DNA of 64,000 bases from Gammaproteobacteria bacterium (GCA_029883265.1 JAOUJM010000001.1:10511-74510); one strand, 5' to 3'; positions 6,847-51,852 are shown, counted from the first letter of the stretch. Numbers and translations: made by a program. The notes: generated by a model not told the origin, from the letters alone.

Positions 6847-6930
6847 GTAAGCGTCCCAAACTCCGCACCTTCCCAGTTCGCTTAAGATCCGTTAGCCTGT
6901 TTCTGTGTAAATTACCGGCAGGAGCAAGCC

Positions 6931-7634: not shown

Positions 7635-7646
7635 TCCGTCTGATAC

Positions 7647-18732: not shown

Positions 18733-18755
18733 GTAAGCGTCCTAAACTCCGCACC
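18733..18755 (+). repeat. IS66 left terminal inverted repeat (copy 2)
   Basis: GTAAGCGTCCTAAACTCCGCACC. The canonical IS66-family end starts GTAAGCG. Confidence 0.75.
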
Positions 18756-18816
18756 TTCCCAGTCAGTTTAAGATCCGTTAGCCTGCTGCTGTGTAAATTA
18801 CCAACAGGAGCAGGCA

Positions 18817-19523: not shown

Positions 19524-19553
19524 TTCTGGATTAACCTGCATTACAATAGCGCC

Positions 19554-36800: not shown

Positions 36801-39800
36801 CATCATTATATTCATAATCAACACGCACGCCTTCACTATCAATCATTGACGTACGATTGCCCTGATCGTCATAAGCAAAACGCGTTATATTGCCATTTTG
36901 ATCGGTAATGGACGTTATGTTATCGCTGCTGCGACCATCCTCATCATAACCATAAACCATCCGATTTTGATTTTGGTCATAGAACTCATGTAATCGATTC
37001 TGCTCATCAAGAAAATAATTCGTCTGTGTATTGCGAGTCAGATCCTCAACCATCGTCCGGGTGGATGTTGTTTCATTTTTCACATAATAGAAATTGAGTG
37101 GCATGATTAAATCCATGCCTTCGACGAGTGAGGTGACGCCCTGCGAGGCAAAATATTCCTGCAAACTCACAGCGAGTTGTTCGTCGCCATAAATCGCAAA
37201 CGCAATGTTTTCCCAAGTGTCACTCGCACTAACCGTGTGAAAGGGTGGGAGCGTAAACTCTTGATAAGTGGGTGAAAAGAAATTGAAGGTATGACTACTC
37301 AGATTATTTTCAATCAGGCCACCACCCACACTGCTCCAGTCATTCCATAGATAAAAGGCCTGTCCTTGCTCGTCCAGTGATAAATCGACCAGAACTTTAT
37401 TACCAGTTCCCACACCATCTTGAGCAACTTCGTCACTCCAGCCACGACCGGGAACATAGTATCTGCTTTTAACAACTGCGGCGCCCGACGCACCATCTTC
37501 CCAAAGTGCGACGATACGCCCTTGTTTGTCCTGCTCAATTCGGTAATCAAAATAATTCGAATTACCTCTGGATGTAGCGCCGAGTAATTTAGTGTCACTC
37601 AAACCGTTAACAGAATCAAAAACTCGCGTATAAAGATTGCCGCCATTCTTCCACGTCACCAACCATTGATCACCATCCAACTTGAAGATTTCTGGATTGA
37701 TATTCGTGTTATATAAAGTGCTTGAAATCGTATCGACAACAAAACCCGTTGACCAAGCAGCGCCGCCTTCTGAATACCATAGATTGATTTTTGGACTGGA
37801 GGCCTGTACAAAAACCATAAGTCGATTACCCAAGCCATCACTTTCTAACTTAATATTGTTGCCACCATCTAGTACACCAAAACCCGGAATACTTAACTTT
37901 TGTGATGCAGCCCATCCTGTAGCTACCGAATAGCGCATGGTGCGAACTGCTCGGGAAATTTCCCAAACCACTTCCAAACCACCATCGGGGAGAACAGTGG
38001 CATTAAAATCGGCGTTGTAGGTGCCACCCAGATAGGTTTCACCAATCCAACCCGATCCCAAAACATAACGATCGGCTTTAATGGGTTGTGGATTGGTGGA
38101 GGTATTACCTTCAGTCCATACTAGATAAACATCACCATTATGGCCTTGATGTAATTGAAATGGTTTCCATTCGGGAAAGCTCACCGGTGCTTTAACAGTG
38201 GGTGCGCTCCAACTATTCGTTGATGCATCATAAAACATCACCATTAAATTGCCGGAGGTATTGGCAAGATTCATTTCATAATATGCAACGGTAATATTGC
38301 CCGCGTCATCAATTAATACCTGGGGCGCTTCCATACGCGTGGACATTGCTTGCCCATCCACCAATGTTATTGCAGCTTGCCAATTTACATTAGTACCGCT
38401 TTGTTGATAGCGACTGATATATAGACTTTTAGATTGTGCAATACTTTGATCGGCCAAGACATCATTATCAATCCAAACTGCCACACCCTGCCCGCTGGTG
38501 TTAGACGCTACATCGATACTTTCTTCCGCTTGCGCCGATGTGCTATACACGGTGTTGGTTGCGACGGCGTGTTCCGCATTGCTTAGCCAACCAGGATAGA
38601 AATCACCGGCATAAACAATCTTTGTAGTCTGTAATTGTTCTGGAAGGGCGATAGCAGAGGCAACTTTATTTAAGTCGAGATTAATGCTTTTGTTTACAAA
38701 TTCACCACTAACTATTTCCGACCAACTCAGTAATCCGAAACCTAGCTCATTCACACTTAGATAAGGACCATAAATACTACTGTCACTTGCGGCCACCTGA
38801 CTCGGACTTGTCCAATTTGCACCATCAAGTGAATAACGCACGAAAAGCGTGCTCGGACCATTTTGTTCACGCCACACCAGTGCCATTCGACCTTGATCAT
38901 CTTGATGAACCTCATAATCAAAATAAAGATAATGACTGGTGAAGCTTTGCTGGGTCGCCACGGATGTTGTTGTCGACCAGCCCGTTGCTGAATCAAATCG
39001 CTTGGAAAACACTTCCTGGTTATCCTTCCAAAACAACACCCAATTGCCTTCCCCTTGATTGAGCAGTTTTAGATCCTTATTGCGATAGGTGCTTGAAGTT
39101 AATACGCTATCGATATTTTCAGTGGTTGTGGTATCACTCATCGCATCATAATACGATGTACCTAAAACACCGGCGTTGTACCACACCATGAGGCGGTTTC
39201 CTACAGTGTCGCTATCGTGGGCGATATTTGCATAGGTATTTGTAATGAACTGATTCTGGGTTGGTTGAACACCGACGCCTGCAATGTAGTCAGTAACTTT
39301 AACAAGATTGCCTCGCGACCAGGCAACGCTCGCATTACCCGACTCGGTGACATCTAATACCGGATACAAATTGAAAGTGGTACCATAGAGACGATCATTG
39401 ATAAATTGCGCGCCCGTCCAACCGGATCCCGCGACAAATCTATCCAAAACAATATCATTGTATTCCGGCGAGGGACTGTCTTGGTTGTACATCAGATAAA
39501 AAGCCCCGGTTCCACCGGTTTTCAGCTCAAAAAGCCGTTTTGAGTCGTAATTTGCAGCCATGTTCTGAATGGTATGTTGCTGCTCGGATTGCCACGTTTG
39601 TGTTGCCGCATCGTAAAAACGTGTCATCAAATAGTAATTACTAGACGTCAGCTCAGCACCATCATTCTCCTGCCACGCAATCATGGCATTACCTGCATCA
39701 TCAATGGCGACCTTAAGATCATAGAAAGTGACGGTGGGTGTGGTTTGTCCTATGGCAGGTTCGGCGCCAACAGTAATGCTTTTTGGTTCACCCCAGGAGC

Positions 39801-41001
39801 CACCAAACTCATTCATGGTGTAGTGTGAAACAAAAATGCTTTTGGAATAACCACGGCTGAAATCGCTCGTGGTGTTATCCTCGATCCATGCGGCAACACC
39901 AGAACCATTTGCACTCATAGCGACATGAGGATTGATCGCTGCGTATTGAGTGGTTTGGGGTAGTGTTTGCAAGGTTCCCGTAGACACAACTCGTTCACCC
40001 GGATAGGTGTAACGTGTCTCATTCCCCAACACATCGCTTACCGTTTGTAACTGACCGGCTGCATTATAGGTAAAAGAAATACTAACCCCATCACCACTGG
40101 TAATGTTACTGATTAAATGGCTCACATCATCCCGATAGGTATAAGTCGTTACATAACGTTGGCCATTAATCGTAGAATTGGTTGTACCGCTAATAGCACT
40201 GATGAGCGAATCGGGTGATAAATCAACAATCACCTGAGTTAAACGATTCAATGCATCATAAGTGTAATGGGTGCGTGCACGGGATTCGACAGCTTGAGTT
40301 TTAGTATCTCGAACCGTACTGGCGATTTTTGTTAAATTTCCTTTAGGGTCATAAACAAGATTAACTGTTTCGACAATACCTTCTGCTTGTAGTAGTTCAA
40401 TTTTTGAAACAAATTGACTGGGCGTGGATCCCCCACCGTAATTATATTTAATTTCATTCTGATCAGAATCAACAACACGACTAACACCCCAAATCGCGCT
40501 ACCATCTGTTGCGGTACCAATTTGCGTATATTCTTCGGTAAAGCTTGAGTTGCCATCCCAAAATGTCCAGTTAGTACCATCAAAAGTTAATATATCATGA
40601 GCGCCATCACCGTCAGTGCTAATGTAATGGTTGTTGGCTTGATCATAAGTAAAGAGTGCTTCAAATCCATCCTTATACGATTTGATCACACTGGAACCAT
40701 CTTGGTTGACCGTTCCCGACAAGCTATGAACACGACGATTTACTCCTAGTCGCCAGTTATCACCATTGTCATCATTTTTCTGACCCAGACTGTTATAAGT
40801 ACGAACCAGATTGAAATCGAGTCCCAAACCAGAGATAAATTCATCCTGGGCTTGCACCACCAAATTACCCGTTTGGGTATTCACATAAACATTGTCGCCA
40901 TTGCGGCCCAATCGAGCTTTGCCTTGGCCGGCATCATTGCCGATGAGATTAAGTGAGGTGTTGTATAAACCCAGTCCTTCACCATTGGTTATCGCAACCA
41001 T
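21847..41001 (-). CDS. Giant RHS/YD-repeat polymorphic toxin (6,384 aa) with a C-terminal class-3-lipase-like (GHSLGGGIA) toxin domain
   Basis: Single uninterrupted 19,155-nt ORF. N-terminus GRNGDNVYVN…LVRTYNS (RHS N-terminal motif). About 16 W-containing Asp-box-like repeats (S-x-D-G-x-x-W-T) in two groups. Dozens of YD repeats (YxYDxxGNL/R). Five LysM-like segments (Y-x-V-x-x-GDTL-x-x-IA). A Gly-rich hydrophobic segment (FWMNVASVVISIAAFIVFG…). Then the IRR-encoded VSVQNSAP and a GHSLGG serine-hydrolase domain. RBS GGAGA at 41007-41011. Confidence 0.9.
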   Translation of the reverse strand: MVAITNGEGLGLYNTSLNLIGNDAGQGKARLGRNGDNVYVNTQTGNLVVQAQDEFISGLGLDFNLVRTYNSLGQKNDDNGDNWRLGVNRRVHSLSGTVNQDGSSVIKSYKDGFEALFTYDQANNHYISTDGDGAHDILTFDGTNWTFWDGNSSFTEEYTQIGTATDGSAIWGVSRVVDSDQNEIKYNYGGGSTPSQFVSKIELLQAEGIVETVNLVYDPKGNLTKIASTVRDTKTQAVESRARTHYTYDALNRLTQVIVDLSPDSLISAISGTTNSTINGQRYVTTYTYRDDVSHLISNITSGDGVSISFTYNAAGQLQTVSDVLGNETRYTYPGERVVSTGTLQTLPQTTQYAAINPHVAMSANGSGVAAWIEDNTTSDFSRGYSKSIFVSHYTMNEFGGSWGEPKSITVGAEPAIGQTTPTVTFYDLKVAIDDAGNAMIAWQENDGAELTSSNYYLMTRFYDAATQTWQSEQQHTIQNMAANYDSKRLFELKTGGTGAFYLMYNQDSPSPEYNDIVLDRFVAGSGWTGAQFINDRLYGTTFNLYPVLDVTESGNASVAWSRGNLVKVTDYIAGVGVQPTQNQFITNTYANIAHDSDTVGNRLMVWYNAGVLGTSYYDAMSDTTTTENIDSVLTSSTYRNKDLKLLNQGEGNWVLFWKDNQEVFSKRFDSATGWSTTTSVATQQSFTSHYLYFDYEVHQDDQGRMALVWREQNGPSTLFVRYSLDGANWTSPSQVAASDSSIYGPYLSVNELGFGLLSWSEIVSGEFVNKSINLDLNKVASAIALPEQLQTTKIVYAGDFYPGWLSNAEHAVATNTVYSTSAQAEESIDVASNTSGQGVAVWIDNDVLADQSIAQSKSLYISRYQQSGTNVNWQAAITLVDGQAMSTRMEAPQVLIDDAGNITVAYYEMNLANTSGNLMVMFYDASTNSWSAPTVKAPVSFPEWKPFQLHQGHNGDVYLVWTEGNTSTNPQPIKADRYVLGSGWIGETYLGGTYNADFNATVLPDGGLEVVWEISRAVRTMRYSVATGWAASQKLSIPGFGVLDGGNNIKLESDGLGNRLMVFVQASSPKINLWYSEGGAAWSTGFVVDTISSTLYNTNINPEIFKLDGDQWLVTWKNGGNLYTRVFDSVNGLSDTKLLGATSRGNSNYFDYRIEQDKQGRIVALWEDGASGAAVVKSRYYVPGRGWSDEVAQDGVGTGNKVLVDLSLDEQGQAFYLWNDWSSVGGGLIENNLSSHTFNFFSPTYQEFTLPPFHTVSASDTWENIAFAIYGDEQLAVSLQEYFASQGVTSLVEGMDLIMPLNFYYVKNETTSTRTMVEDLTRNTQTNYFLDEQNRLHEFYDQNQNRMVYGYDEDGRSSDNITSITDQNGNITRFAYDDQGNRTSMIDSEGVRVDYEYNDVNQIISETRYRVNDPDGADINNTGTGGVGASDAQSSFYIYDAEQHLVFTVSSEGVVNEYVYDTQGRQISQILYKGHIDTSALDPATPISATLLNQAPYNSVVNVGNILQRSDTTYDFRGNISTVTTFDSINPTTGAGVTTTASTTHFVYDAQGILIETIEAQAAATGETRDFITTFTYDGLGRLLASNKPLNHTTTYFYDDVGNQIVRTDANELQTTTVYDSHGYAISQSQQDGQLNPLGTIEYKYDSSGNLRLTIDQTGNYSQNYYDATNRLVATVDKEGGLTETVYDDAGRVIKTIEYSTPVLQSIVNYPYVAGSNFYELSAIKPNSSPSDRINYFIYDDADRLVMQLTPYDNDVTRVAVTQHFYDGSNQLTHSIAYANPFVITGMPNNPRAEYFLDSTTGTYVNEDANNDRRTRFFYNNDGQLVATLDAEGYLTETEYNAAGQVVKTSAYANRSTANLASASLQQLKDAIVRNLAKDQYSYNFYNAKGQLIANHDAEGYLSTFSYDLNGNETESIRYNNKALIISAKGIPADGTYPIMEVRVDGVLVDSIVVDSENFKDYQINALFDQRDTYTIDLTFVNNDLTSRDLQIQSITTGEHQQVVATPDTYSVSVAHGLIQKRLAHVNDKTIVKTYTELNQMETVTNSVDGLVTSYAYDDVGNLIRQTDSYLNALLEFADLDVSLAPENGYTVQSGDTWESIVRSVYHTANANAFVAFAELMGAASPTVGEMLNLPGRFSYTHNQRSSLLRYDIQGRLIGEQLNAQGIAKLDTLINPSESELDLLWEIYGVTHTYNEQGLRTSTKDQNDHRTWFYYDDNGRLRFTAQDVSGTLDESGKVLSNVAEVNELSYNQFGEVKETVAYSTRITNSNTLTGGLVTPSFLDRLSGNTMVDSRTQSSYNLRGAIWRAINGEGQRTEYAYNAFGQISSSVQQQDPTLIPVSQALTGQTSRSDTYVYDRRGLSTSTLKDVSVAGHTGLEIETKRTYDAFGRVIQSTDGNSNITQFGYDRLGRQVQTRNALDVSRSQTYDAFGRVLTMTDAFLNVTTYAYDDATHTLTVTTPELIQTQTITDRNGQTIKIIDGNQSAANSNDGTEYHYDTNGKLVKVVDMLNNTITSEYDKAGRLTHTVDKNGVYSKFEYDAANRVMTRTVDPMTIHTTGDNETGLNIQTQYVFDGLGRKVTTIDANGVHTDTEYDRAGNVLAVVVDAVNGGLNLRTEYTYDAEGRQLTVTEGANSTQARETQYIYDHLGRRTDTIVDPGGLNITTKYYYDAADNMVRKVEGYRRVDVSGLSGSLTLNYAFDDQTLTSSYYVMWSNVTSLATDRILLKENGTTVYDSPADSDFGRYRRGRSGFTYELVLLRNGLELSVATVLPFTPALGAFSETSEVAFATDLSAEDTSHSMRYVYDDVNRLRYSIKNADVLDFEYMELDPIPTGQLAVVVESVYNDRGDKVKTIQYALPISTTTLDDHSTEADILSLVSASADLAKDIVDYSVFDDDGRLTVTVNAVGNYTVYEYDDNGNVIRQSRLANSVSTTDLATINSTNTELLAQTILQKRPDVIANDQGDHFAYDKLNRLRYSVDAMGYVNEKRYDASGQVILSMRYASKETTFADYKEATIRGNLAGNSSTDQINHYFYDNAGRKIYSIDALGYVNQTSYDALGQAIVASRFYQALTINSYQDSTPTAAEWNTYLETRINTLNRQVVDVTETTPLVTATSGKDRVSFQQYDAAGRVSFSVDAEGYVTGREYTGDLLSRVTQYANQLQVVNDTTAEGFPESGVATLATQRFDVRNEGDIQLLVSGTNLLYRNSDTTSGDRSTRYVYDDAGRLYQEILENVSYTTHSTDENGDLVTEYGYDAFGNTTSIVKRLNISGDELQRTTQEFSQRGLLTRRTVYLEAASVVANLDTAHPQTQMAYSSEFGYDAFGNQTKIIDPRGIELTETDSDWADNERKLILGLTATTNLSYIQLTQDQKDTLLNYYSTYQTFDQLNRKTASVIKEGAGSTVNIFELKKTDYDAFGNITKITEPYDTISYFYYDKLDRNTLVVDPERYVTTKAYDGMGNLTGTMQYATAIAAAHTVDDNTTESQILETFLEINTDKDQKTLLNYDQLNRKTELTNAESVKEKYDYDAFGNQIGKLLGHQPITNVLDPDYQRSLGYQYHYNYDRKGNLTSEYLPIANKGGISDRESIEVGMDGRFLLPFIDFETTGFERQTNEFSYDAFGNRRISREAAGMEEERSRSYTYNKLNLLVKTENHRIKLSAGDSVGITTTIEQKYNVVGNLVREIDANLNITQHYYDNLGRRIATHDAEGFLKTFAYDSVSNIIEERKYRDTATFADSIYKFTVSNVYMQLTHRYDAFNQIVETKLPAEHRYEKDRMVPIGDPGDDQFIKEENYVSETVIRKYYDHKGRLVREVDGNENSIFHYYDKKGNKRVTVDALRYATQWNYDAFNNAIREEKASIRLRDVVDENTSLLEVLEKFETNGYEDRIVQVNLEEGYFYPYFWQVGDGMPSVMYVKINLPTLKQGDYYVIRAARADGTYHTTFPTTTILTKGTIPLRSYNTGEIKEFVITLISNSDSFEIARVDTNLMLGSQGWHSGYSAFDVNRLKISDVDYVGGVWSASLLREGETTATPVDVMVNENGEAFFDVGNISGRATVSYILQDNDRVIKSGSINLSNVNVATNGGYNFVIESVDLRDNQYSDSRIKNYSFDKLNRLKTDSLENFQTYSFSNGNMQSGVLEDSVTAYVYDVMGNITTIVDAESNTTNYSFDVLGRLLTKKSGLKSTKNIYDAHGNVIEARNIASEKDSESRNIPLNGAPSLANLDQIQKFSYGVDGRLLEDWDANFNANVSEEYGANNKYTYDAVGNVRTQSLNRHDADGNLFTDIAEYIYDRLNRNIVSGKRTEKNSSVYAYFENKYTEYNGYEKAAFQGAYERNTLQLSRPEANKARQVFFEYDSNGNLIKTNSDGVVKEYAYDRNGNATKEILPSITDNNAPSVYRSSVYNERNELVHIYEPSHTQSISQTLYQTLSDRKVDIEVTPYGGLHLRVHDAVGKDWAETWWDAVDPNVDSIKNSYGEGSLVLEFNPNNEEEKIITYGSGGKDAHYRTPKGHDIGSRTYSATIKKNGYTIASVSGSFRDVDGQNNYVAVDQYYGRDIILKNVPKSLGTLTVEIRRVGETEWVTVEHFDTPSGFNPSWQTWNFGDAGLEGQFELKYEYHYDNEATNPDLTPHTGKVILNLSNNPSVEPGSHLRLDGNAFSSDDGDNSIEARVTSFPFMDSSLSWYYIRDVYLENVDPAQGTLSATIRQSGGETYKEIIFRTITDSTRQRYSVPRSYSGDYVINYTYKPNDPNAKVLQGQLSIDLTGEASLYSHRRVNSSDNSDPDQFVQIHKSHYYNAFGEIVQEKDGKDIYTYFEYDKMGNLIRKSNPRKDPIRNSYYSRLQTIQDANAIYYYDKLGNVTGITDARNNLKRFSYDQNGLKQEFNPDGGGMTYVYDGFGNVIEKRQKLTADSDRVTKYQFDHNNQITYVTKEKHNVIKYVLGSFGGITEETSNIYDNVEKYEYDENGNRIAHINLVDTSLDLTDPDTNSHDEILHDQGGGRERTYFDALGRVVKHVSYGDKVTRYDYNYLTFNGQEGGFSKTTYSGNLYIVRSGDTLESIARQLLRVSEVANRIGSDNGVVDETLVVGNTLTVYLYGRREKLNYIVQTGDTLASIAYSLLNVEDMSNSIGQANNITDADLKAGLQIIIPHYETRAITDQYDYFNKLVYHRDLGNRSYRYFYDARGQLRYQIGNTDPGASIIATDAAWNNIDTQLHGFTYDYMDLYRYSLNNFMTNHSDYDQVIEFDYNDNGSLKAKVDYGFNGGNDGVRLVSRYGYDNNGNKTYEAVYEEGANADIGKDYQYTIAIYDDYNRVVEINDPFFNITYDYDEMGNRIHVVSKYHGGIDLNAHRGADYREATGDFVQEHWYDYDSMNRFRITQGRLDVGGSGNVEIAENKGYEVLYNLAGERIGVNYIRANTTMIERYGYTKNGILETVEHGKIVDNVEDKNLVSRRLLDALGRTSSSHLYDPDIETVVTTIPPQSVQQYDYSYDLDSRISRIEYRKRVENSEDQFLYLQEQSTIHNDYTYREIDRLDLAEKNVSYQVKSIEEQKNFRNSYFYSYWDSAKKSVGRSDVNSRGFVDGYSHLYYDQNGHLMRMDDSNSPLHGTKYERRVEFTVDADGRIIMRNEIDNTNYDVNRYFYLNGRGIGEVSNRGAGETDYTQILAQSRLSNKEIADNEKRGKNRVISADFDQNYQAISANYPANTASEYLVVQGDTLETIAGKVWGDASLWYVIANANNITNIDLTPGISIIIPNVVTNIHNNADTFKPYSPGEIIGSTDPSMPARNQPSKSEIFWMNVASVVISIAAFIVFGPQGAIIAAGMTSYAIQKYMKNVGYIDEIDEEEIVKSMTIAAIISQIPGLNQTGGGVVKGALQGAGRALISTGLSMAMESTEQRKKYNSQAGNLFANVAVGALVGGVTSSLPSNVGKVDGWGFAGVAGDAIRGALTGVGRIAVNSMTLKDYRPDWRTVAVEALSSAASGYISAEQSTKKFDNKLDELKINDHRQRQAIKKHYTKSIRKGVSGEDAWKSALGELPLFGGIQPGRNLIRNGGKTYNGYGQVSVQNSAPGKIPYRQSSDAVETKPILTFKNGQLVDENGTLYNSQLASAAPIRLDFSGSLDWYENAMVSDDVYQEYTGKEPKKVTEDIYRMGRDFIDVLDMKPENFVDKKSGYQGALYFNYRTSEFIFANRGTDTKLGRHEAVKDAVASIAQGSDFNSTQYEFGINLAIDLQIALGSSPLTFTGHSLGGGIASAQAGRLKSSAVTFNAAGLSDGTIERYGMDRNHLKKNVYAFYTPGEILSTLQASPVVDSVLNQWGTVPKNLLAAVMALNDVSYGRDIGWHRFGPGQMPEAAGTRIAVPAVNEAKQPLPWQSYLDPVDLHDMQYFINAFK
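22817..22839 (+). repeat. IS66 right terminal inverted repeat (copy 2), translated on the minus strand as VSVQNSAP inside the giant ORF
   Basis: GGGGCAGAGTTTTGGACGCTTAC, directly followed by the TSD. Confidence 0.75.
22840..22847 (+). repeat. 8-bp target-site duplication CTGGCCAT (right copy)
   Basis: Matches 18725-18732 exactly. On the minus strand it encodes (Y)GQ of the giant protein. Confidence 0.85.
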
Positions 41002-41006
41002 GAGAG

Positions 41007-41011
41007 TCTCC
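41007..41011 (-). promoter_or_regulatory. Shine-Dalgarno sequence (GGAGA) of the giant rhs gene
   Basis: GGAGACTCTC precedes the ATG (41001..40999) on the minus strand. Confidence 0.5.
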
Positions 41012-41063
41012 CTAGAATCAGTACTTATAATTTATCGTCTACAAGTTATATCCAGGGTTTAAT

Positions 41064-41514
41064 GAAGATGTTCAGTCGGATTGCACAAAAAAATGTTTGT
41101 TTGACTATTCTTTATACGATTTTAATTTTTTAGTCTATTTTTGCCTAGCCATATGAGATGTCATGTCAATTTAAAGCGCTGAAGATCAAGCTTTTTCAAA
41201 AAAACTCATAACGCTCTGAATGATTTTTTCCGGTGTATCAAGATTGTCTCCTGCTGCGAGAATAGTTTTACATAGGAGTACGAGCGGAGAATTTGGCTGC
41301 ATGGCTTCCGCTTTTAGCAATACTTCGCTGGCTTGATTGTCATTGCCTTCAAACAATGCCACCAAAGCCAAACTTGCGAGTGTTTCCGCACTTTGTCCAT
41401 CAAGTATTAATGCTTGCTGCAAGTTGCTTTTTGCTACTGGGATTTGATTACTGGCTATTTGCGCCCAGGCCAATGCAACCAGGTTCGCAGTGTCGTTTGG
41501 CATGAGGTTTGTGG
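41064..41514. repeat. ~450-bp direct repeat, left copy (duplicate of the 3' end of TPR gene 47101..48189 plus its downstream region)
   Basis: About 98% identical to 46980-47429. Similarity begins at AGATGTT(C/T)AGTCGGATTGCAC and ends at CATGAGGTTTGTGG. It contains the region immediately upstream of the giant gene start. Confidence 0.8.
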
Positions 41515-41545
41515 GTTGAGCTGAGCTAAAAAACAAGTCGATCAT
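41186..41545 (-). pseudogene. Truncated copy of the TPR protein C-terminus (110 aa nearly identical to the end of 47101..48189)
   Basis: ORF MIDLFFSSAQPTNLMPNDTANLVALAWAQIASNQIPVAK… matches …NLMPNDTANLVALAWAQIASNQISVAK… of the full gene. The N-terminal 9 aa come from unrelated flanking DNA. Confidence 0.7.
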
Positions 41546-41877
41546 CCACCATAGATTATGAGCATAAAGCCCTTGACGAACGTATACTGTACTTGATTTG
41601 TTTTCGAGTAATGCATTGTTTTCAGTTGCAAGCTTGATTAGAAAATCACCTTCATCACCGAGTGTGCCTACTCATACATTTTCGTCTGAGAAAATATTTG
41701 GTAGGTGTAGTAATTGGAATAAGCATTCAACGATGTCTCAATATCGTAGAAGGACAATAAACTCCCATTTTCCACACTCAAGCGCACAACGAATTCTCTG
41801 TCACTACCCGCGCTCATAGTCAGTGAAACTGATAGCCCATAAATTATCTGAGTGCGACTTTAACATTGAAATACTCC

Positions 41878-42330
41878 TTAATGTGAATGACTCACCAAGA
41901 TCAACACTTTCATTTGATCATTGTTCACGGAAATTTCCAAACGATCAAAATTTAATTGTAATGGTGGGGAGTTTTGCACGGTTACATAGCTGTATCCGAC
42001 GTAGGTGGCAATTTCTTCTAACCTGTAGTGCCCACTTAGATAAGCTTGGGGCATGGCTTCACTGCGAGTGCTCGTATTTTTTTCATAGTACGCGATTGGT
42101 TTGGGGGGCGTTTGTCTTTGAGGCTTGGGGATATCTTTCAACGAAAAGATCGGGTTGAATGTTCGATTGCATTTCTTCAACAAATTCGCGAAGTGCTTTT
42201 TTAGCTAGTTTTCTGGACGAATGAGCCTTTGACGACGCGCTAACAAACTTATTGATAGTGTATATTTGGATTGCAAGTGCCGGGGCTTCAACTATGACTC
42301 ATTTCCGGACAACTTAAATCAGAAATGGTG
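41878..42330 (-). pseudogene. Degenerate HTH/transposase-like remnant (frameshifted)
   Basis: There are two adjacent frames. One reads …SSKAHSSRKLAKKALREFVEEMQSNIQPDLF… and the other reads MLKKCNRTFNPIFSL…YRLEEIATYVGYSYVTV… (IS3-OrfA-like RTF-P-F motif plus an HTH). There is no intact ORF, so the assignment is weak. Confidence 0.3.
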
Positions 42331-42369
42331 TTGCAGCAGGATTTCCCACATTTTCCCTTGCCAACGGTA

Positions 42370-43845
42370 TTAGAAGCTTATCAATACTCCCATCTTCATC
42401 GATGATAGGCTGATTTGTCGTAATTTATGAAAGTGAGTATTTTTCAATTCAAGTTGGGGCAGATGATGCTGGTATCGTATAAAAATATTCATCGCAGATT
42501 GACTAAGGACTGGATACTGAATTCCCATAAGCGCAAACCAAGCGTTATGTATTTTCTCTTGCACTTGCATAGTCCCTTTTTGGGCCAGATAACTTTTTGC
42601 CTGAGAGTCGATTGTATTCCTGTTTAGAGAGTACCCCGAACCAATATTAAAGCCAATTTTGCGAAATGGTCTTATATCAAACATCACATAAAATGGGATG
42701 CTAGTAAATGTGCCACGACTCAACTCGCCTACTTGATTACTGCCCTGCTCATATGCCATACCTATAGTTAATTTTTGATAACCAAATTCCAGTTGCGGGT
42801 CGAAATGATTCTTTCGGTTTTTAGCATATAACGAATAGGCTATGCCAAACTTTGCATTTAGTGTTGAAATATTTCTTCGTTTCGTTATAAAACGGGAAGT
42901 ATGCATGGAAGTATGTGCAGAAATACCCAATAACACAATAGAGTTGCGTGCAGAAAATGTTTGGTCCAGTTTGGCGAGAAATGACAAATTAGGACTGCTT
43001 GTATCATATAAATACTGTGTTTGTTTTCCTTGGCTATCAATTTGCTCATATTGATACTGAACAAAGCCAAACAATCTTTGAGATAGAGGATAAGTGAGTG
43101 TAAAAGTATAGGCAATCATGCTGCCTTTAAGGCTTCCACGTGAAAGTTTTTTCCTTATTAAGTGATCGTCCTCATCCTTCAAGCGAAGTCGTGGTGCCTT
43201 AATCAAATTAAATTCGAAAATGAGTTGACGAAAAATACTTTCTACTGAAACACTCCAGTAAGGAATTTGCAAAAAAGTATTGTAGTGCAACACGGGACCA
43301 GAATGTGTATTAGCTGCGCGTGTGGAATCAGCATAAAATTGGTTTAGGTTACTGGCTACAAAATAGCGTTGACTGCTTCGATAACCTAGCGAAAATTTAT
43401 AAATCGTCTTAACTCCGCTGCTCCAGTGCTGAGTTTGTAAAGTTGAGACTCCTTTAACATTATTGGTTTTTTGGTTTAATACTAAATCACTTATTGAATA
43501 AACATCCGGTGTAGATATATTCCCCGATAACCAATCGCCATCTTTAAGTTGTCCACTTTTCTGTGTCGTACTTCGATTTGAGTTTAATTCGATCGATAAT
43601 CGATTACTTAATGCAGCTGCAATGGAAATTGAAGGGGATATGTTATTAATTGGAAAGTGCAATTCACTTACCGGGAAATGTAATTGAGCGTTTCTTTGCG
43701 CTAATTCCGTTTCCCCCCCAATACGATATTGATTATAGCCTTGGTAGAGACCTATTCCCGGCTGCAAAAAAAGTAGTTTAGCGCCAAAAACGCTTACCGC
43801 GTTCAACGTCAATCCCATGAAGATGATAATATTGCATGTGCGCAT
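42370..43845 (-). CDS. Putative outer-membrane beta-barrel protein
   Basis: 491 aa. N-terminal signal peptide. Alternating hydrophobic beta-strand pattern rich in Y/G/S/N. C-terminal …GVLISF ending in Phe. Confidence 0.5.
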   Translation of the reverse strand: MRTCNIIIFMGLTLNAVSVFGAKLLFLQPGIGLYQGYNQYRIGGETELAQRNAQLHFPVSELHFPINNISPSISIAAALSNRLSIELNSNRSTTQKSGQLKDGDWLSGNISTPDVYSISDLVLNQKTNNVKGVSTLQTQHWSSGVKTIYKFSLGYRSSQRYFVASNLNQFYADSTRAANTHSGPVLHYNTFLQIPYWSVSVESIFRQLIFEFNLIKAPRLRLKDEDDHLIRKKLSRGSLKGSMIAYTFTLTYPLSQRLFGFVQYQYEQIDSQGKQTQYLYDTSSPNLSFLAKLDQTFSARNSIVLLGISAHTSMHTSRFITKRRNISTLNAKFGIAYSLYAKNRKNHFDPQLEFGYQKLTIGMAYEQGSNQVGELSRGTFTSIPFYVMFDIRPFRKIGFNIGSGYSLNRNTIDSQAKSYLAQKGTMQVQEKIHNAWFALMGIQYPVLSQSAMNIFIRYQHHLPQLELKNTHFHKLRQISLSSMKMGVLISF

Positions 43846-43876
43846 TTTACAATAGCCGCAACCACACGATAAAATA

Positions 43877-44809
43877 CTAAATATCAGTTGTTTCTTGATA
43901 ATTAAGAAGATACGGAGTAATTGTTTGCTCGGTTCGGTTCAATAAATAAAAACCGTGTTGATCGACAAGCGCGCCTCTTAATAAAATTAAATCACCATCG
44001 GTAGAAACAGAATATGATTGTATAACTCCACTGTATTCAAAATTAGCTGGGACAAAATCCAATGAATCGACAGTTGTCGTTTTTGGCTGAACATCCAGAA
44101 TATGAAGATCATTATCGGTGATGCCATATAGTTGATCTAGCAAAGAGTTGTATTGCCGAGGTTTGAAGGAAATGCCTTGTTCCGTATAAAAAGACAACTG
44201 TAGATCCAAAATTACTAAGGAATCAGTTGTTGGATGATAGAGAAAAGCTTCTGCATCCGTTTTCCATACGAAGAATCCGTATTGATCACTACTTTCTACG
44301 ACTGTACCAAAATCGTTGACGATCTTAAAGCTGTTGGCCGTGGAAACTGCGATTAAGCTACCATCGGGTGAAGTGTCTAAATTAATAGGTGGTTCTTCCA
44401 GGAGCATTCGAGTTATCTCTACTCCTGAGGCATCGTAAGCAATCAGTCCGTATTCTTGAGTTAGGCGATTTTCCGTGACAAAGAAGGTTGTATTATTTGT
44501 TAAACGAGCTGCGTATAGTTCTGCAATCGAATCTGCTTTGTGATCGTTCAGTTGCATAATTTTCACAGGAGTTTGAATCGATGTTGCTGCTGTAAACACG
44601 GTTTTAGTGTTACTCACCTGGTTATGGGAAGACTGAGGCCCCCAGGTTTTTTGAAGATCCTCGAGAAACAGAACACTGTTATCTGTATCAAAACTCGCGG
44701 CAAAGTAAGAAATGTGTCTTGTTTCCGTTTCTGTCTCGTTTGGCAACAGATCACATCCTAATAAAGTCACGGCAATGTAAGCCGTGACAAATCTAAACAA
44801 TATTTTCAT
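43877..44809 (-). CDS. Lipoprotein, possibly beta-propeller-like
   Basis: 310 aa. Lipobox VTLLGC. Repeated D/S/G-rich strand segments. It is in an operon with the flanking genes (gaps of 5 and 31 bp). Confidence 0.45.
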   Translation of the reverse strand: MKILFRFVTAYIAVTLLGCDLLPNETETETRHISYFAASFDTDNSVLFLEDLQKTWGPQSSHNQVSNTKTVFTAATSIQTPVKIMQLNDHKADSIAELYAARLTNNTTFFVTENRLTQEYGLIAYDASGVEITRMLLEEPPINLDTSPDGSLIAVSTANSFKIVNDFGTVVESSDQYGFFVWKTDAEAFLYHPTTDSLVILDLQLSFYTEQGISFKPRQYNSLLDQLYGITDNDLHILDVQPKTTTVDSLDFVPANFEYSGVIQSYSVSTDGDLILLRGALVDQHGFYLLNRTEQTITPYLLNYQETTDI

Positions 44810-44814
44810 AAACC

Positions 44815-46089
44815 TTAGAATCCAGAACTCGAAAGATCGCAGTTATTGCTGCTTGATCCATCGTTGCTTGAACTATTCGAGCTACTACAGTGCTCATTCC
44901 CATTTTCTGCAATGAATAGTAATTTACTTTTGGTTTCCGCTTCAACTTCTGCGGTAAATCGAGTGCCAGTCCATTTTTCTGGTAACCCCGTATTTACATA
45001 AATCGCTTCGAGTGCTTTAGTATGAAGGTTAGCAATAATTGATACAATAGGCGATTTATAGGTATAACCTACCCATATTTTAAGAGTACCCAACCATGTT
45101 TTAATGTAAATATAATTGCTACTCCAATGAGCGTAGGCTGCATAAACGTCTCGGCCCACTTTATTGTTATGCAAATCCATTTGGCCTGCCTTTGAGTCCC
45201 AGTTTTCACCCTTTTGTTCATGCGCGTTGGTAAATACCTCGGCCCACCATAAACCGCGACTTTCACTGGATGGCAAAATTAAAGTTGAAGAAGCAAAATG
45301 TGCAAGGTATGCATTCCATGCCGAATGCTGAAAGGAATTTGCTGAGGTACTATCAGCCGTGGTATTGAAAAGACTTTTAGTTGAGCTTTTAGCGTTGTTG
45401 GATGCATTGAAGGTGTCTAACCAATGTTCGGGGTGATTTACCAACAAATAGATTTCACCGGCACTCAATTTACTACCAAATAAATTCTCCAAGTCGTCGT
45501 AAATTGATTGAGAAACCGCCGCTGTATCTATAATTGCATTTTGCAGTTCAGCAATGGAAGCGGCAATTTGCATTTGTACCTGCGGCGTCGCAAGTTCGGA
45601 TATGACTATATAGTTTTTCTCTGCACCGATTTTTTTAAGTTCATTACGAATTTCTGCGACCACATAATCTTCAATATCTTGCTCCGTCATGACTTGATCC
45701 GGGGTCCCTGTTTGAGGATTAACTAAGTTTTGTACTTTCTCATTTGCAAAAGCCTCAACATTGAATGCAGGATAGCTTGTTCCTAGCGCTTGGATGATAG
45801 GTTCGACTGCGTCGAAAGTAGCTAGAAATTCAAGCCCTACACCATCCAAGGATTGAACCACGTGAGGTGTCAACATATCCACGAAATCATCATCGCTCAT
45901 TTCCAAAAGATTAGGAGGAAAGCTGGTTTTATATTTTTCGTAAAGCGGTTGCTCACTAGTGCCATACTGATGACTTACAAGTGAATCTCTATCGGAGTGA
46001 CTACACGCATGCAAAAATGTAGTCAATGATAAAACTATCAAGCAGGAAAATAACTTCCGATTATAAAAATTGTTTTCTAAAATTACCAT
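44815..46089 (-). CDS. Lipoprotein of unknown function with a Ser-rich C-terminal tail
   Basis: 424 aa. Signal peptide with lipobox FLHAC. C-terminus CSSSNSSSNDGSSSNNC. Confidence 0.45.
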   Translation of the reverse strand: MVILENNFYNRKLFSCLIVLSLTTFLHACSHSDRDSLVSHQYGTSEQPLYEKYKTSFPPNLLEMSDDDFVDMLTPHVVQSLDGVGLEFLATFDAVEPIIQALGTSYPAFNVEAFANEKVQNLVNPQTGTPDQVMTEQDIEDYVVAEIRNELKKIGAEKNYIVISELATPQVQMQIAASIAELQNAIIDTAAVSQSIYDDLENLFGSKLSAGEIYLLVNHPEHWLDTFNASNNAKSSTKSLFNTTADSTSANSFQHSAWNAYLAHFASSTLILPSSESRGLWWAEVFTNAHEQKGENWDSKAGQMDLHNNKVGRDVYAAYAHWSSNYIYIKTWLGTLKIWVGYTYKSPIVSIIANLHTKALEAIYVNTGLPEKWTGTRFTAEVEAETKSKLLFIAENGNEHCSSSNSSSNDGSSSNNCDLSSSGF

Positions 46090-46776
46090 AATATTTTTCT
46101 CAACTGTCTATTACCAAAAACAAGATCTTGCAGCAGGCTTCCTCAAGCTACACCTTGCGATGTTAACCATGCCTTTCTACTAACCTTCAGCTTTGCGAAC
46201 ATCTTGTAAAAGTAGGAAATGGGTGTCTTACAATTTACCCATTTAGAAATCATATGAGTCAATTTGACTGACGTAAAAGGTTGCGTCCCATTTTTCCAAC
46301 GGCCTACAGTAGAATTCGGCTAATAATAATTGGGAATCGGTACTCGAAAGAAATAAGTGTCGTTTTTTAATCGAGCAGCGATTAATTGAACCAATCGAAC
46401 TAATTTACCATTATTATTTTTGCGCATATTACATTACGCATGCAACTTGTCAATTACTTTTGGTTGCTTTAGTTTATTGAGGGATTGCAAACGGGTTAAT
46501 TGTCGGGCTTAGGATTGTGGCTGATAGAGTTTCACACTAGCTGATTTTGTTCGTGGTGCGAATTCGAGTCTTAACGCATTCTCAACTAATAATCTCCATC
46601 AAAGTTGGCCTAAACATTTTCAGGCTGAATCAAATTCAAAGGACACTACTGCGCAATCTTTATTTCCACGACCTTGGCGCTCCAACTCGTTATATACAAA
46701 CTGTTGAAGCTGCGATGAAACGCCGTTTTCCTCACACGCCGGCACATTGTTAACTTTCTTGAAAAAGATATAGGCT

Positions 46777-46944
46777 TCAAAAGAATTCATCCTTGGCCAT
46801 AATATGAGAATCATGAGCCTTAACGGGACAAATATTCTTAAAATACCCGCGAAATGCATCGTTGACATGATCCATATTTCGATCACGCTCTTTCATGCGT
46901 CTCTTTGCTCTGGCAAATGCTTCGTCACTTGGTATTTTACTCAT
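46777..46944 (-). CDS. Small ORF (55 aa, MSKIPSDEAFARAKRRMKERDRNMDHVNDAFRG…) with a strong RBS
   Basis: AGGAAGG lies 8 nt upstream of the ATG (46944..46942). The ORF is below the ORF-track size cutoff. It conflicts with the overlapping track ORF 46620..46886. Confidence 0.3.
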   Translation of the reverse strand: MSKIPSDEAFARAKRRMKERDRNMDHVNDAFRGYFKNICPVKAHDSHIMAKDEFF

Positions 46945-46979
46945 CTATTTTCGCCTTCCTGACCTAGTGATCTTGCTCA

Positions 46980-47429
46980 AAGATGTTTAGTCGGATTGCA
47001 CAAAAAAATGTTCGTTTGACTATTCTTTATACGATTTTAATTTTTTAGTCTATTTTTGCCTAGCCATATGAGATGTCATGTCAATTTAAAGCGCTGAAGA
47101 TCAAGCTTTTTCAAAAAAACTTATAACGCTCTGAATGATTTTTTCCGGTGTATCAAGATTGTCTCCTGCTGCGAGAATAGTTTTACATAGGAGTACGAGC
47201 GGAGAATTTGGCTGCATGGCTTCCGCTTTTAGCAATACTTCGCTGGCCTGATTGTCATTGCCTTCAAACAATGCCACCAAAGCCAAACTTGCGAGTGTTT
47301 CCGCACTTTGTCCATCAAGTATTAATGCTTGCTGCAAGTTGCTTTTTGCTACTGAGATTTGATTACTGGCTATTTGCGCCCAGGCCAATGCAACCAGGTT
47401 CGCAGTGTCGTTTGGCATGAGGTTTGTGG
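46980..47429. repeat. ~450-bp direct repeat, right copy
   Basis: Pairs with 41064-41514. Confidence 0.8.
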
Positions 47430-48189
47430 CCTGTTGCAAATAGTCACAAGCGGAGGAAAAATCCTGTTGCTGTAATGCAATCATGCCCAGCCCAGACAAG
47501 GACCGTGCATTTTTTGCATCACGCTTCAACGCATGATGGTAATATTGTTTGGCATGATTCAAATCAGATCGATCAAAACTTATCGTCCCCAACACTACAT
47601 GGGCTTCAAGCGAATCAGCATCTAATTCCAAAGCTGTTGTGGCATACTCTAAGGCCCTGTCTTGTTGTTGCGCATCCAAAGAAATAATCGCTAGTTGTCC
47701 GAGTGCTGTCACATCCTGAGGATGCCGCACAAGATATTTTTCGAGATTAGACTGCGCTTCATCAAGTTTATTGAGGTGATGCTGTGCTCGCGCAAGTACA
47801 ACCGCTACATTGGGTACTTGTTGAGACTGTAGATCAATTGCACGAAGCACCTCTTCGGCTTGCTCATACTCTCCTGTATATAAGTAGGCATAACCAAGAT
47901 TGTAACGCAGCACATCATTATCCACGCCTTGTCGCTGCATATCCAACAAAGTAGCAATCGCTTGCTTATAATCACCACTGGCGATGCTGAATGTTGCTAA
48001 ACGAAAAAGCAAACCCGGGTCAGCTCCTAAGCGTTGGATGGCAGATTTAATCTGTTGTTCTGCGTTATCAAACTGCGCAAGCTGCGTTTGTAAATCAATC
48101 ACACGATACAAAAGATGCAAATTGTTTTCGTCTTGTGACAAATAACCTAAAAACTTGTTGAGCTCTGTTTGCAGTTGATCCGTATCCAT
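47101..48189 (-). CDS. TPR-repeat protein
   Basis: 362 aa containing multiple 34-residue TPR-like repeats. It is the last gene of the flagellar array. Confidence 0.6.
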   Translation of the reverse strand: MDTDQLQTELNKFLGYLSQDENNLHLLYRVIDLQTQLAQFDNAEQQIKSAIQRLGADPGLLFRLATFSIASGDYKQAIATLLDMQRQGVDNDVLRYNLGYAYLYTGEYEQAEEVLRAIDLQSQQVPNVAVVLARAQHHLNKLDEAQSNLEKYLVRHPQDVTALGQLAIISLDAQQQDRALEYATTALELDADSLEAHVVLGTISFDRSDLNHAKQYYHHALKRDAKNARSLSGLGMIALQQQDFSSACDYLQQATNLMPNDTANLVALAWAQIASNQISVAKSNLQQALILDGQSAETLASLALVALFEGNDNQASEVLLKAEAMQPNSPLVLLCKTILAAGDNLDTPEKIIQSVISFFEKA

Positions 48190-48205
48190 GCAGGTTCCTG
48201 TTGGC

Positions 48206-48763
48206 TTAGTTTATCGTCTTATACGCGTTTTTTGCTAATTGAAGATTATTATTAACATCCTCATTGCTTTGATCTTGATTGAGCTGTGTTAACAATTCCT
48301 TGGCCTTGCCAAAATATAAATTATCGGCAGGTGCAGACTGCATCAGTCGATTCAAACACTCACGAGATTTCTCGAATTCTCCTTTTTGCGCATGGGCAAG
48401 TCCCTTATAAAACAGTGTCGGCGGACTCAAAGGCTCAACCTCTAACACTTCTGCCCATATTTGTAGCGCGTCATCAATCTGGTTTGAGTCAAAGTGTAAC
48501 ATACCGTACTCAAATTTTTCGATGGTTGCTTGATGACTGTTTTTTAGGTATTGCTGATAAAATTGTTTGGCTTTGTCATACAAATGCAATTGCGCGAACA
48601 ACTTTCCTCCCATAATTAATGCCTCGCTATTATCCGCATCGACTTTCAGCACTTGTTTGATTTTTAATAAAGCGTGATCGACCCGATTTTGCTCGATATC
48701 TAAACGTGCTAAGGCCACTAGCTCCCTATTATCAAATTCATTCAACATGGATTGAATATCCAT
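48206..48763 (-). CDS. TPR-repeat protein (small, chaperone-like)
   Basis: 185 aa with 3-4 TPR repeats. It lies directly downstream of fliA. Confidence 0.5.
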   Translation of the reverse strand: MDIQSMLNEFDNRELVALARLDIEQNRVDHALLKIKQVLKVDADNSEALIMGGKLFAQLHLYDKAKQFYQQYLKNSHQATIEKFEYGMLHFDSNQIDDALQIWAEVLEVEPLSPPTLFYKGLAHAQKGEFEKSRECLNRLMQSAPADNLYFGKAKELLTQLNQDQSNEDVNNNLQLAKNAYKTIN

Positions 48764-48803
48764 TATTACTTCTCCTCAATTATTTTCAATTCATTCAAAC
48801 CTG

Positions 48804-49538
48804 TTAGTAACTAACATCCATTGTTTCCGAATGATCCATAAGTTTTCGTAGATTGTCCAAACCACTTTTGTGGAGTTGGGATACGCGCGCTTTTGATAAA
48901 CTCATTAACTTGGCTATGGACTCAAAGCTTAGATGATAAAAATAGTGACAGCGTAACACTTCTTGCTCGTTTTCTTTCAATCTGCCGACTAAATCCCGCA
49001 TTTGAGATTTCAAGCGCCGTAGTTCGTCACTGTTATATGGATTACCATCAATTGCCACTGGGTGATCTTCACTGTCAAGTATATAACTGATCGCAAAGTT
49101 TACCGTGGTCTCAACCATTCGCGCAAACACCGACTGTTTAAAAGCCTCCGAGTCCACAGAGGTAATCGATGTTACACGATCGGCCTGGGCCTGCTTGGCG
49201 AAACTATATTGTTTTCGTTTTTCAGTAAAGTTTTGAATACCATTAAGAATGGCTCCTTTGATTCGATAGCTTGCGAAGCTTGAAAATCGTATATTCTTCT
49301 GCCAATCAAAACGATCAATTGACTCAATAAGACCGACGGTTCCCAATTGAATATAATCGTCTAGGTCAATATCATGCTGATTCTGTTTTAAATAAACATG
49401 GGTTGCAGTTTGCCGGACCAAGCCGAGATAGTGACAGATAATTTTATCTCTAACTTTGCCGCATGAATCCGAATCAAGCTGCTGCCACAAATCCAGTTCA
49501 TCATTGATTATCGGTTCTTCCGCTGAAATTGTCATCAT
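48804..49538 (-). CDS. fliA: Flagellar sigma factor FliA (sigma-28 type)
   Basis: 244 aa. Region 2 motif LGTVGLIESIDRFDWQKNIRFSSFASYRIKGAI. Region 4 HTH LSFESIAKLMSLSKARVSQLHKSGLDNLRK. Confidence 0.8.
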   Translation of the reverse strand: MMTISAEEPIINDELDLWQQLDSDSCGKVRDKIICHYLGLVRQTATHVYLKQNQHDIDLDDYIQLGTVGLIESIDRFDWQKNIRFSSFASYRIKGAILNGIQNFTEKRKQYSFAKQAQADRVTSITSVDSEAFKQSVFARMVETTVNFAISYILDSEDHPVAIDGNPYNSDELRRLKSQMRDLVGRLKENEQEVLRCHYFYHLSFESIAKLMSLSKARVSQLHKSGLDNLRKLMDHSETMDVSY

Positions 49539-51051: not shown

Positions 51052-51852
51052 TTACTTATTTAGTGAAACAACTTTTAATGATTTGCGTTTATTCTGCTGT
51101 CCCAAGTAGGCTTTGCATTGAATTGTTTTGCCATGAATAACTATATTTACAGAATCATTCAACGATTGATCCAAGCGCAACACATCCCCGATTTTTAGAT
51201 TACGCAAATCATTAACACTGACTTCCGTCTGGCCAATCTCCACACTATACTGAATGCGTTTGGACCGCAGGGACTCATGAATACTGTTTAATTTTGCTTT
51301 TTCTTTTCTTGATTGATTATCTGCGACTAACAGGCTGCTGACCATTGTAGGCGCCATTACAACGCGTAGTTCTGCGAGCCCGAGACGAATCGACACCTGT
51401 ATCGCAGCTGAACCTTTGTAGAAATAATTGCTTGGCACAGTGGTGTCACTGGTTTGGTCAAAGGGCGCAACACGCACTTGCTCAATTTCTTTTTCACAAA
51501 GTCCGGCCCCCAAGTGTCGTAATGCGTCACGCAACACATGCGACATCAATTGACTATTTGAAAGATCAATTGATGTCGTCTTTGGTTCTGGAAACATTAA
51601 CGTTGTATAAAAATCTTTTTTAAAGCTTGCGCCCGTGCGAAACTCACACATAAACTCATTGTTCTCATCCATAAATGCATAGGCAATGGATGCATCGAGT
51701 GGTGGCAACGGATGATCAACATGTACAATGGCTATTTGACTATTAAGCATCCAGTCTTTTGCCCATTGCTCAAGTCTATTTTGTAGCTTTGTTTTAATAA
51801 CTTGTGCTCGTTTGGGACTGATCAGCACAAAAGAAGATATGTTTTTCATCAT
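51052..51852 (-). CDS. fliM: FliM-like switch protein (short; lacks the N-terminal CheY-binding peptide)
   Basis: 266 aa. C-terminal SpoA-like segment EVSVNDLRNLKIGDVLRLDQ…VNIVIHGKTIQCKAYLG. Position immediately before fliN. Confidence 0.55.
   Translation of the reverse strand: MMKNISSFVLISPKRAQVIKTKLQNRLEQWAKDWMLNSQIAIVHVDHPLPPLDASIAYAFMDENNEFMCEFRTGASFKKDFYTTLMFPEPKTTSIDLSNSQLMSHVLRDALRHLGAGLCEKEIEQVRVAPFDQTSDTTVPSNYFYKGSAAIQVSIRLGLAELRVVMAPTMVSSLLVADNQSRKEKAKLNSIHESLRSKRIQYSVEIGQTEVSVNDLRNLKIGDVLRLDQSLNDSVNIVIHGKTIQCKAYLGQQNKRKSLKVVSLNK

Follow-up and report, generated by a model that had tools for sequence, protein, structure and literature searches.

A 450-bp direct repeat brackets a 5465-bp segment that lies between a flagellar-type gene cluster and a giant rhs gene in a 64,000-nucleotide stretch of metagenome-derived DNA (Gammaproteobacteria bacterium, GCA_029883265.1 JAOUJM010000001.1:10511-74510; hereafter the window, with positions counted from its first letter). 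We refer to the segment as X and to the repeat as R, with copies R1 and R2. On balance, X is probably the newcomer, of duplicative or Campbell-type origin, introduced by one event in which R was duplicated as X went in. The insertion point would be the junction between rhs and the last gene of the cluster, which encodes a 362-amino-acid (aa) TPR protein, TPR362.

Geometry and content of the repeats

A repeat search and pairwise alignment place the repeats at 41065-41514 and 46980-47429, where they align over 450 bp without gaps and are identical at 445 positions (98.9%). A first-pass annotation made from the sequence alone had reported direct repeats of about 450 bp and 98% identity, and the copies are neither shorter nor more diverged than that. 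Their start-to-start distance is 5915 bp. They are the sole long high-identity repeat in this part of the window, the alignment falls to noise abruptly beyond both limits, and a whole-window scan revealed no third copy. Inverted repeats of at least 30 bp are absent from 39000-49500, including the ends of X, and no tRNA, tmRNA or known RNA that could act as an attachment site was found. All genes of the region around the repeats are on the minus strand, and the main features, in the direction of transcription, are:

47101-48189, minus strand: TPR362, intact 362-aa TPR protein, last gene of the flagellar-type cluster
46980-47429, minus strand: R1, right (upstream) copy; final 329 bp of TPR362 with the 121 bp beyond its stop codon; part of the intact gene
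41515-46979: X, the 5465 bp between the repeats, probably inserted DNA
41065-41514, minus strand: R2, left (downstream) copy; displaced or duplicated TPR tail with the same 121 bp
41186-41545, minus strand: truncated TPR open reading frame (ORF), 119 aa, in which 10 codons from X are fused in frame to the duplicated tail
41002-41064, minus strand: unique 63-bp spacer between R2 and the rhs ATG, with a sigma-28-like promoter candidate, TAAACC-N18-CGATAA (41061-41032)
21847-41001, minus strand: giant Rhs, 6384 aa, with DUF6531, RHS repeats/YD shell, LysM and a phospholipase-like tip

The two copies differ at left-copy positions 41073, 41098, 41207, 41333 and 41440. Three of these differences are coding (S278P, I356M and one synonymous change) and two fall in the 121 bp; the 119-aa stub, made of 10 new codons and 109 codons of the TPR tail, accordingly carries two substitutions relative to TPR362. 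The stub and the 63 bp that separate R2 from the giant-gene ATG at 41001 both agree with the earlier description. The outer flanks continue the original sequence: upstream of R1 lies the remainder of TPR362, and downstream of R2 comes the rhs leader. This is the topology of a Campbell-type insertion. That R2 runs straight into rhs is expected if R2 and the 63 bp represent the original TPR362-rhs intergenic region.

Independent assemblies and strain variation

As the window comes from a metagenome-derived genome, independent assemblies of the locus were sought; all of the data are short-read metagenome assemblies. Contig L001 (ERZ27296366) spans window positions 58189-41441 at 99.8% identity, and L006 (NCBI GCA_029880205.1) spans 47870-41438; both run from the TPR gene through R1 and X into R2. 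Contig L003 (ERZ27296342) spans 47179-31186 at 100%, from R1 through X and the complete R2 into 10 kb of rhs. Shorter contigs cover 48654-46678 (L002, ERZ27296354) and 44785-41485, hence the X/R2 junction (L005, Logan SRR7132593). All four repeat junctions are thus present across contigs from other samples, and the X/R2 and R1/X junctions occur in four or five independent samples.

These contigs bear on whether the arrangement is an assembly artefact, with two strain variants or a collapsed repeat wrongly chained together. Short-read assemblies throughout and several contigs that break within the repeat would suit that explanation; L001 stops one base before the single-nucleotide polymorphism (SNP) at 41440, and L003 begins at 47179. 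Breaks of this kind are expected assembler behaviour. Consecutive R1/R2 SNPs are at most 126 bp apart, below the k of 141, which ties the copy-specific alleles to their own flanks: L003 crosses R2 entirely, with the R2 alleles linked to both flanks, and L001 and L006 do the same for R1. The junctions in independent contigs and the SNP phasing therefore show that the duplication is not a misassembly, and we regard an artefact as extremely improbable.

The sampled strains differ from the window by 0.08-0.15%, compared with 1.1% between R1 and R2, and every one of them carries X. Since the divergence between the copies far exceeds that between strains and X is present in all, the event is older than the split of these strains.

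Variation among the assemblies includes one of the five sites that differ between the copies: R1 in L002 has the left-copy allele at 47248, which is either an ancestral polymorphism or a short gene-conversion tract between the copies. Elsewhere, 8 of the 14 SNPs between L001 and the window cluster in 370 bp (54696-55064) around the start of FliI (gene 54650-55993), a pattern that looks like a small recombination tract between strains.

Conserved neighbourhood of the rhs gene

No close relatives of the locus were found: TPR362 has no homologue above 28% identity besides itself, and a 29-mer derived from the repeat is absent from GTDB genomes and JGI metagenome contigs. Orthologues of TPR362 were found in Hahella (27% identity, the best match), Legionella dresdenensis and loci L013 and L059. 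Further Rhs loci were found by searching with the first 800 aa of the window Rhs and then reading their contexts. The N-terminus was chosen for comparison because the Rhs bodies of the window and Hahella share only generic repeat-level similarity (22-28%).

In two Hahella genomes (L008 and L010), the order is a giant DUF6531-Rhs, a 112-aa protein, ADP-ribosylglycohydrolase, TPR179, TPR378, FliQ, FliR, FlhB, FlhA and FlgF, continuing to FliF. The C-terminus of TPR362 aligns to its end with the Hahella orthologue, and TPR179 is 41% identical to the window protein TPR185. Locus L060 has FlgE, a FliM-like protein, FliN, FliO, FliP and a sigma factor, followed after 69 bp by Rhs. Locus L062 has FliF, a 155-aa protein, FliH and FliI, then FlgD and FlgE, and later FliP, a sigma factor and, after 178 bp, Rhs, which matches the gene order of the window. 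In L059, a 385-aa TPR protein (TPR385) aligns with residues 1 to 317 of TPR362, and Rhs follows 240 bp after it. Identities across these clusters (FliP 54-56%, FliI 50%, sigma factor 29-32%, Rhs N-terminus 30-34%) are, judged by sequence, at the level of orthologues.

Other loci are less complete. In L. dresdenensis and L013, FliP is followed by a TPR gene of about 380 codons; no Rhs lies within 10 kb of that gene in L. dresdenensis, and the L013 contig ends 285 bp past it. A metagenome scan with the TPR alignment as query gave L013 as its only orthologue, the matches being mostly generic TPR proteins. The Rhs homologues of Steroidobacter and Aquabacterium (L057 and L058) have no such neighbours.

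A giant DUF6531-Rhs of 4,800-6,400 aa thus stands at the same cluster edge in at least three other lineages (Hahella, L060 and L062), so that the Rhs adjacency is conserved and X is the likely newcomer. We infer that X is the insert, and that the position of the giant Rhs at the cluster edge is recurrent and was not created by this event. The first-pass annotation had proposed that a duplicative insertion joined the flagellar array and the rhs locus. Insertion with duplication agrees with our results, whereas a first joining of the two does not, given the adjacency in these three lineages. The scar does not show that the rhs toxin gene was newly acquired.

Gene content of X

The genes and remnants recognized in X are:

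46777-46944, minus strand: 55-aa ORF at the start of X, 35 bp after R1; no family match
44815-46089, minus strand: 424-aa lipoprotein with DUF6973 (75 bits); also matches Pfam Wnt above the gathering score (22.8 vs 20.3)
43877-44809, minus strand: 310-aa lipoprotein, propeller-like; 28% identical to a partner on contig L007 that has a weak COPA beta-propeller match
42370-43845, minus strand: 491-aa protein with signal peptide and putative omptin-like barrel; 32% identity over 469 aa to an L007 protein
41881-42204, minus strand: 3' end of an IS200-like Y1 transposase gene, a remnant with only some 65 aa of the C-terminal HTH; catalytic N-terminal domain missing

The operon of outer-membrane and lipoprotein genes described earlier is therefore present, in the form of two lipobox proteins and a barrel protein. 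The latter is a predicted omptin-like outer-membrane barrel, because its counterpart on L007 scores as Omptin family (48.5 bits). L007, an 8.2-kb contig, carries homologues of all three X genes and has no TPR, Rhs or flagellar gene. For the DUF6973 lipoprotein, the only homologues found were an identical sequence from another assembly and a single protein of 40% identity, which is the one on L007. The occurrence of the trio together on this unrelated contig indicates that it is a rare but independent module. Relatives of the X proteins were not found among the viral contigs of IMG/VR or the plasmids of PLSDB.

Both ends of X are poor in recognizable genes. The far end (890 bp) has small ORFs without a family match. 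The 824 bp nearest rhs include a 108-aa open frame whose residues 16-78 match the HTH at the very C-terminus of IS200-like Y1 transposases, which are 210-303 aa long. This stump, which bears out the earlier report of an IS-like HTH remnant, was identified with an exhaustive HMMER search and Pfam analysis of the matched proteins; tblastn found no relatives of it on plasmids. The truncated transposase gene marks a past rearrangement at this end of X. The stump was the only match in a search of ORFs and six-frame fragments against Pfam, NCBIfam and PHROGs, which detected no integrase, excisionase or other recombinase in X.

Two observations concern X itself. The Wnt match of the DUF6973 lipoprotein covers residues 279-422, and Wnt is a metazoan family. 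Prokaryotic Min-Wnt/Lipocone domains have been described (PMC12419801), and the lipoprotein is probably one of these. The L007 homologue occurs in linkage with a UbiA prenyltransferase and the omptin-family barrel; no literature specific to DUF6973 was found. In the non-coding start of X, the 9-bp unit CAGTTCGAT (minus strand) at window position 46393 is a strain-variable micro-repeat; L001 and L006 have two more tandem copies of the unit than the window and L003 do.

Composition and codon usage

The GC content of rhs is 0.42, compared with 0.40-0.47 in the flagellar genes, and its codon-usage distance to those genes is 0.039. X is slightly below its neighbours, with a GC content of 0.38-0.40 and a third-position GC content (GC3) of 0.34-0.36, and its codon-usage distance of 0.058 comes from 3.7 kb only. 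Composition, GC skew and codon usage provide no usable contrast that separates X, rhs and the flagellar genes. A comparison of this kind had been proposed in the first-pass annotation; it does not mark either the rhs block or X as foreign.

That annotation had also considered that either the rhs block or the 5.4-kb segment is an acquired island. The second alternative is the one that our results support, as the X genes occur elsewhere on their own, whereas Rhs lies at the same edge in other lineages. The block had been delimited by an IS110 element; the transposases tested there belong to the IS66 family, and no IS110 was found among the ORFs tested.

A promoter candidate upstream of rhs

All of the Rhs homologues begin with MVAxxxGxGLGL, and in all six from other loci the motif cTAAACC-N15-GGAT(A) is present on the coding strand 60-240 nt upstream of the ATG. 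The sites are:

L057, 9907
L058, 9834
L059, 9767 and 9870
L060, 4180
L061, 1393 and 1498
L062, 9913

These are 8 sites in six loci, where about 0.006 would be expected in the 1.5 kb concerned, and a single off-target occurs in 742 kb of loci. The motif is also found at Rhs loci without flagellar genes nearby. It resembles a sigma-28-like promoter and may be read as a promoter candidate, the clusters themselves encoding a FliA-type sigma factor. In the window, TAAACC occupies 41061-41056, at a distance of 60 nt from the ATG (63 nt in L060), and is followed by CGATAA; the candidate begins 3 bp past the end of the repeat. A scan for sigma-70-type promoters gave a count no higher than the shuffled expectation (20 vs 18.2).

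The rhs promoter had previously been placed inside the duplicated TPR tail. Our results do not support that placement, because the only candidate backed by comparison lies in the unique 63-bp spacer, and the duplicated 121 bp contain no terminator or significant structured RNA (z = -0.63; the terminator scan was also negative).

Origin of the present arrangement

The older order would have run from the flagellar-type cluster through FliP, the sigma factor, TPR185, TPR362 and a 184-bp intergenic region (121 + 63 bp) to the giant rhs, with the promoter in the last 60 bp of that region. X would then have entered the TPR362-rhs junction, and the 450 bp formed by the TPR362 tail and the 121 bp would have been duplicated in the event. 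The likeliest route would be recombination of the chromosome, by a single crossover in these 450 bp, with a circular or circularised DNA that carried X beside its own copy of R. A replicative template switch, in which R is copied before a jump to X and a jump back upstream of R, would yield the same product. By any route, the TPR362 frame is complete, rhs retains its own 184-bp upstream region with the conserved promoter-like motif, and the 119-aa stub is a by-product of the event. The insertion appears to have halted just short of the rhs promoter. All sampled strains carry X, which is fixed there and now lacks any functional mobility gene, and recombination between R1 and R2 could still delete it precisely and restore the TPR362-rhs junction.

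Several observations weigh against X as the newcomer by this route. X has no integrase, terminal inverted repeats or compositional signature, and a circle carrying X and R requires that the two had been adjacent somewhere before. No empty site, with TPR362, R and rhs in the absence of X, was found, as exact-protein look-ups gave occupied sites only; with neither an empty site nor a close relative, the direction is read from distant synteny and parsimony. Lineages differ in where the TPR pair stands with respect to Rhs: it comes after Rhs in Hahella, and no TPR gene lies between the sigma factor and Rhs in L060 and L062. It follows that the exact TPR362-rhs junction is not itself conserved. As for the promoter, the -10 element of the window (CGATAA) is 3-4 nt farther from the -35 element than in the other loci, and the window match taken by itself is not significant (18/100 and 37/100 shuffles in two tests).

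Other histories could lead to the same arrangement. X might first have broken TPR362 at the present X/R2 junction, the gene being restored later by a wild-type fragment from another strain, running from TPR362 through the 121 bp and integrated by homology-facilitated illegitimate recombination. The homologous end would then lie in the TPR head and the illegitimate end at the start of X, with the old tail left behind as R2. The predicted product is identical to what is observed, and the 1.1% divergence of the copies, about ten times that between strains, is expected if R1 came from another lineage; TPR362 may plausibly be under selection to stay intact, since its alignment with the Hahella orthologue extends to the very C-terminus. 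Against this, two rare events and a disrupted intermediate are needed, there is no trace of such an intermediate, and the end of R1 within 3 bp of the start of the rhs promoter candidate is left unexplained. We consider this two-step repair unlikely. Nearly the same low probability applies to the reading of X as a decayed site-specific integrative element whose target is the TPR362 3' end and which supplies a replacement tail, with R1 and R2 as attL and attR in the manner of prophage e14 in icd. The topology agrees, in that the target gene is intact and leads into the element, a displaced C-terminal fragment forms a pseudogene at the opposite end and the copies differ by a few substitutions (PMC13626634), and X ends in degraded, unannotatable DNA (890 and 824 bp) with a transposase stump. 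The searches of Pfam, NCBIfam and PHROGs, six-frame fragments included, that yielded no integrase, excisionase or other recombinase speak against it, as do the negative searches for X proteins in IMG/VR and PLSDB, and for an element of 5.5 kb, 450 bp is a long stretch of att homology.

The direction of the event would be reversed if the rhs-to-IS block were an acquired island that brought a donor TPR tail with it and was joined illegitimately to the end of X, in a recipient that already had TPR362 followed by X. The rhs side has IS66 copies and orphan toxin ORFs (a TNT toxin and an ankyrin protein), which are typical of dynamic Rhs loci; the product would look alike, and the divergence between copies fits a foreign R2. 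Such an import, however, is at odds with the conserved state in three other lineages, where Rhs is at the edge of this cluster, and the repeats bracket X rather than the rhs block. The codon usage of rhs is also nearer to that of the flagellar genes than that of X is (0.039 vs 0.058), and an earlier event would be required to bring TPR362 and X together. As it contradicts the synteny and needs this extra event, we regard it as the least likely of the alternative routes. The insertion of X with duplication of R is the reading that we retain.

Comparison with known systems

In Escherichia coli K-12, prophage e14 in icd is flanked by direct repeats from the 3' end of the gene, leaving an intact icd and a displaced pseudogene, icdC (PMC13626634). 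The e14 copies differ by a few substitutions, and when they recombine, the insert is lost and a chimeric gene results (PMC13626634). X is likewise flanked by direct repeats of the TPR362 3' end, with TPR362 at full length and the 119-aa stub at the far end. It differs in that e14 measures 15 kb, has its own integrase and is excised upon SOS induction, whereas X measures 5.5 kb and has no recombinase, only a transposase stump; the repeat at TPR362 and X also takes in 121 bp of intergenic DNA. Because it has no recombinase, X is not assignable as an e14-type element.

Campbell-type integration by a single crossover, as in integrated plasmids and in the ISCR1 regions of complex class 1 integrons with their duplicated 3' conserved segment (3'-CS), leaves the homologous segment directly duplicated on both sides. 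X lies between direct duplicates in the same way and has an HUH-type transposase-related gene at one end. The remnant is, however, a truncated one of the IS200/Y1 rather than the IS91/ISCR type, and neither a circular form nor a donor has come to light. Insertion of a transposon or IS element also brackets the inserted DNA with a direct duplication of the target, but the target duplications made by transposases are 2-14 bp, compared with 450 bp here. X is not a transposon insertion, because a short target duplication, terminal inverted repeats and an intact transposase are all absent.

Rhs loci are rearrangement hot spots with orphan tips and IS elements, and form polymorphic toxin systems (PMC3482391). 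The rhs gene of the window resembles them in its variable toxin tip, the downstream ankyrin ORF, the orphan TNT toxin ORF and the IS66 copies. The rearrangement at X differs from theirs, as it is upstream of rhs, involves a TPR gene rather than the Rhs core repeats and leaves the Rhs protein unchanged. The scar is therefore a new example of a type already known, in which long duplicates of a gene 3' end flank an insertion.

The flagellar-type cluster and its possible link to Rhs

The cluster contains rod, hook, and L- and P-ring genes, FliF, FliH, FliI, FliN, FliO and FliP, its own sigma factor and the TPR pair. The genes next to TPR362 are:

48206-48763, minus strand: TPR185, with weak similarity to type III secretion system (T3SS) chaperones (SctY 30.5 bits, LcrH/SycD 18.7 bits, both below cut-off)
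48804-49538, minus strand: FliA/WhiG-type sigma factor encoded by the cluster; orthologues of 29-32% identity lie directly upstream of Rhs in L060 and L062

This may be an apparatus other than a rotating flagellum. At the position of FliG, between FliF and FliH, the window has an ORF of 163 aa (56779-57270, minus strand; 155 aa in L062), for which no FliG match was found in Pfam or PDB sequences. The FliM-like protein (51052-51852, minus strand) has the FliN-type C-terminal domain only.

The recurrent neighbourhood suggests, at the level of sequence, a functional link between Rhs, the TPR pair, the cluster sigma factor and the export apparatus. No description of a link between Rhs and flagellar-type clusters was found in the literature. 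A tentative possibility, which we regard with some doubt, is that the flagellar-type apparatus has the giant Rhs as a regulated component or as its cargo, which would be a new route of Rhs-toxin delivery, and that the duplication was tolerated as it spared the TPR gene and the promoter.

The repeat itself is a routine rearrangement scar. It appears to record an insertion that preserved the 3' end of one gene and the promoter of the next, and the repeats are a built-in substrate for the precise loss of the inserted operon. The collateral result carries more weight: giant DUF6531-Rhs genes recurrently adjoin one flagellar-type cluster, and an upstream motif is common to them across distant proteobacteria. 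If the link is functional, it provides a testable hypothesis for the regulation or export of giant Rhs proteins independent of a type VI secretion system (T6SS).

Other features of the rhs side

Two diverged IS66-family copies, at 6847-9185 and 18733-21044, have the same orientation and share 78-87% identity. They enclose about 10 kb of small unannotatable ORFs together with the TNT-toxin ORF (17834-18817), and the ankyrin-repeat ORF (21095-21823) comes after the Rhs gene. This layout resembles an orphan toxin/immunity array. Nearer the start of the window, a 152-nt direct repeat occurs at 957-1108 and 1548-1699, its copies being 97% identical and spaced 591 bp apart.

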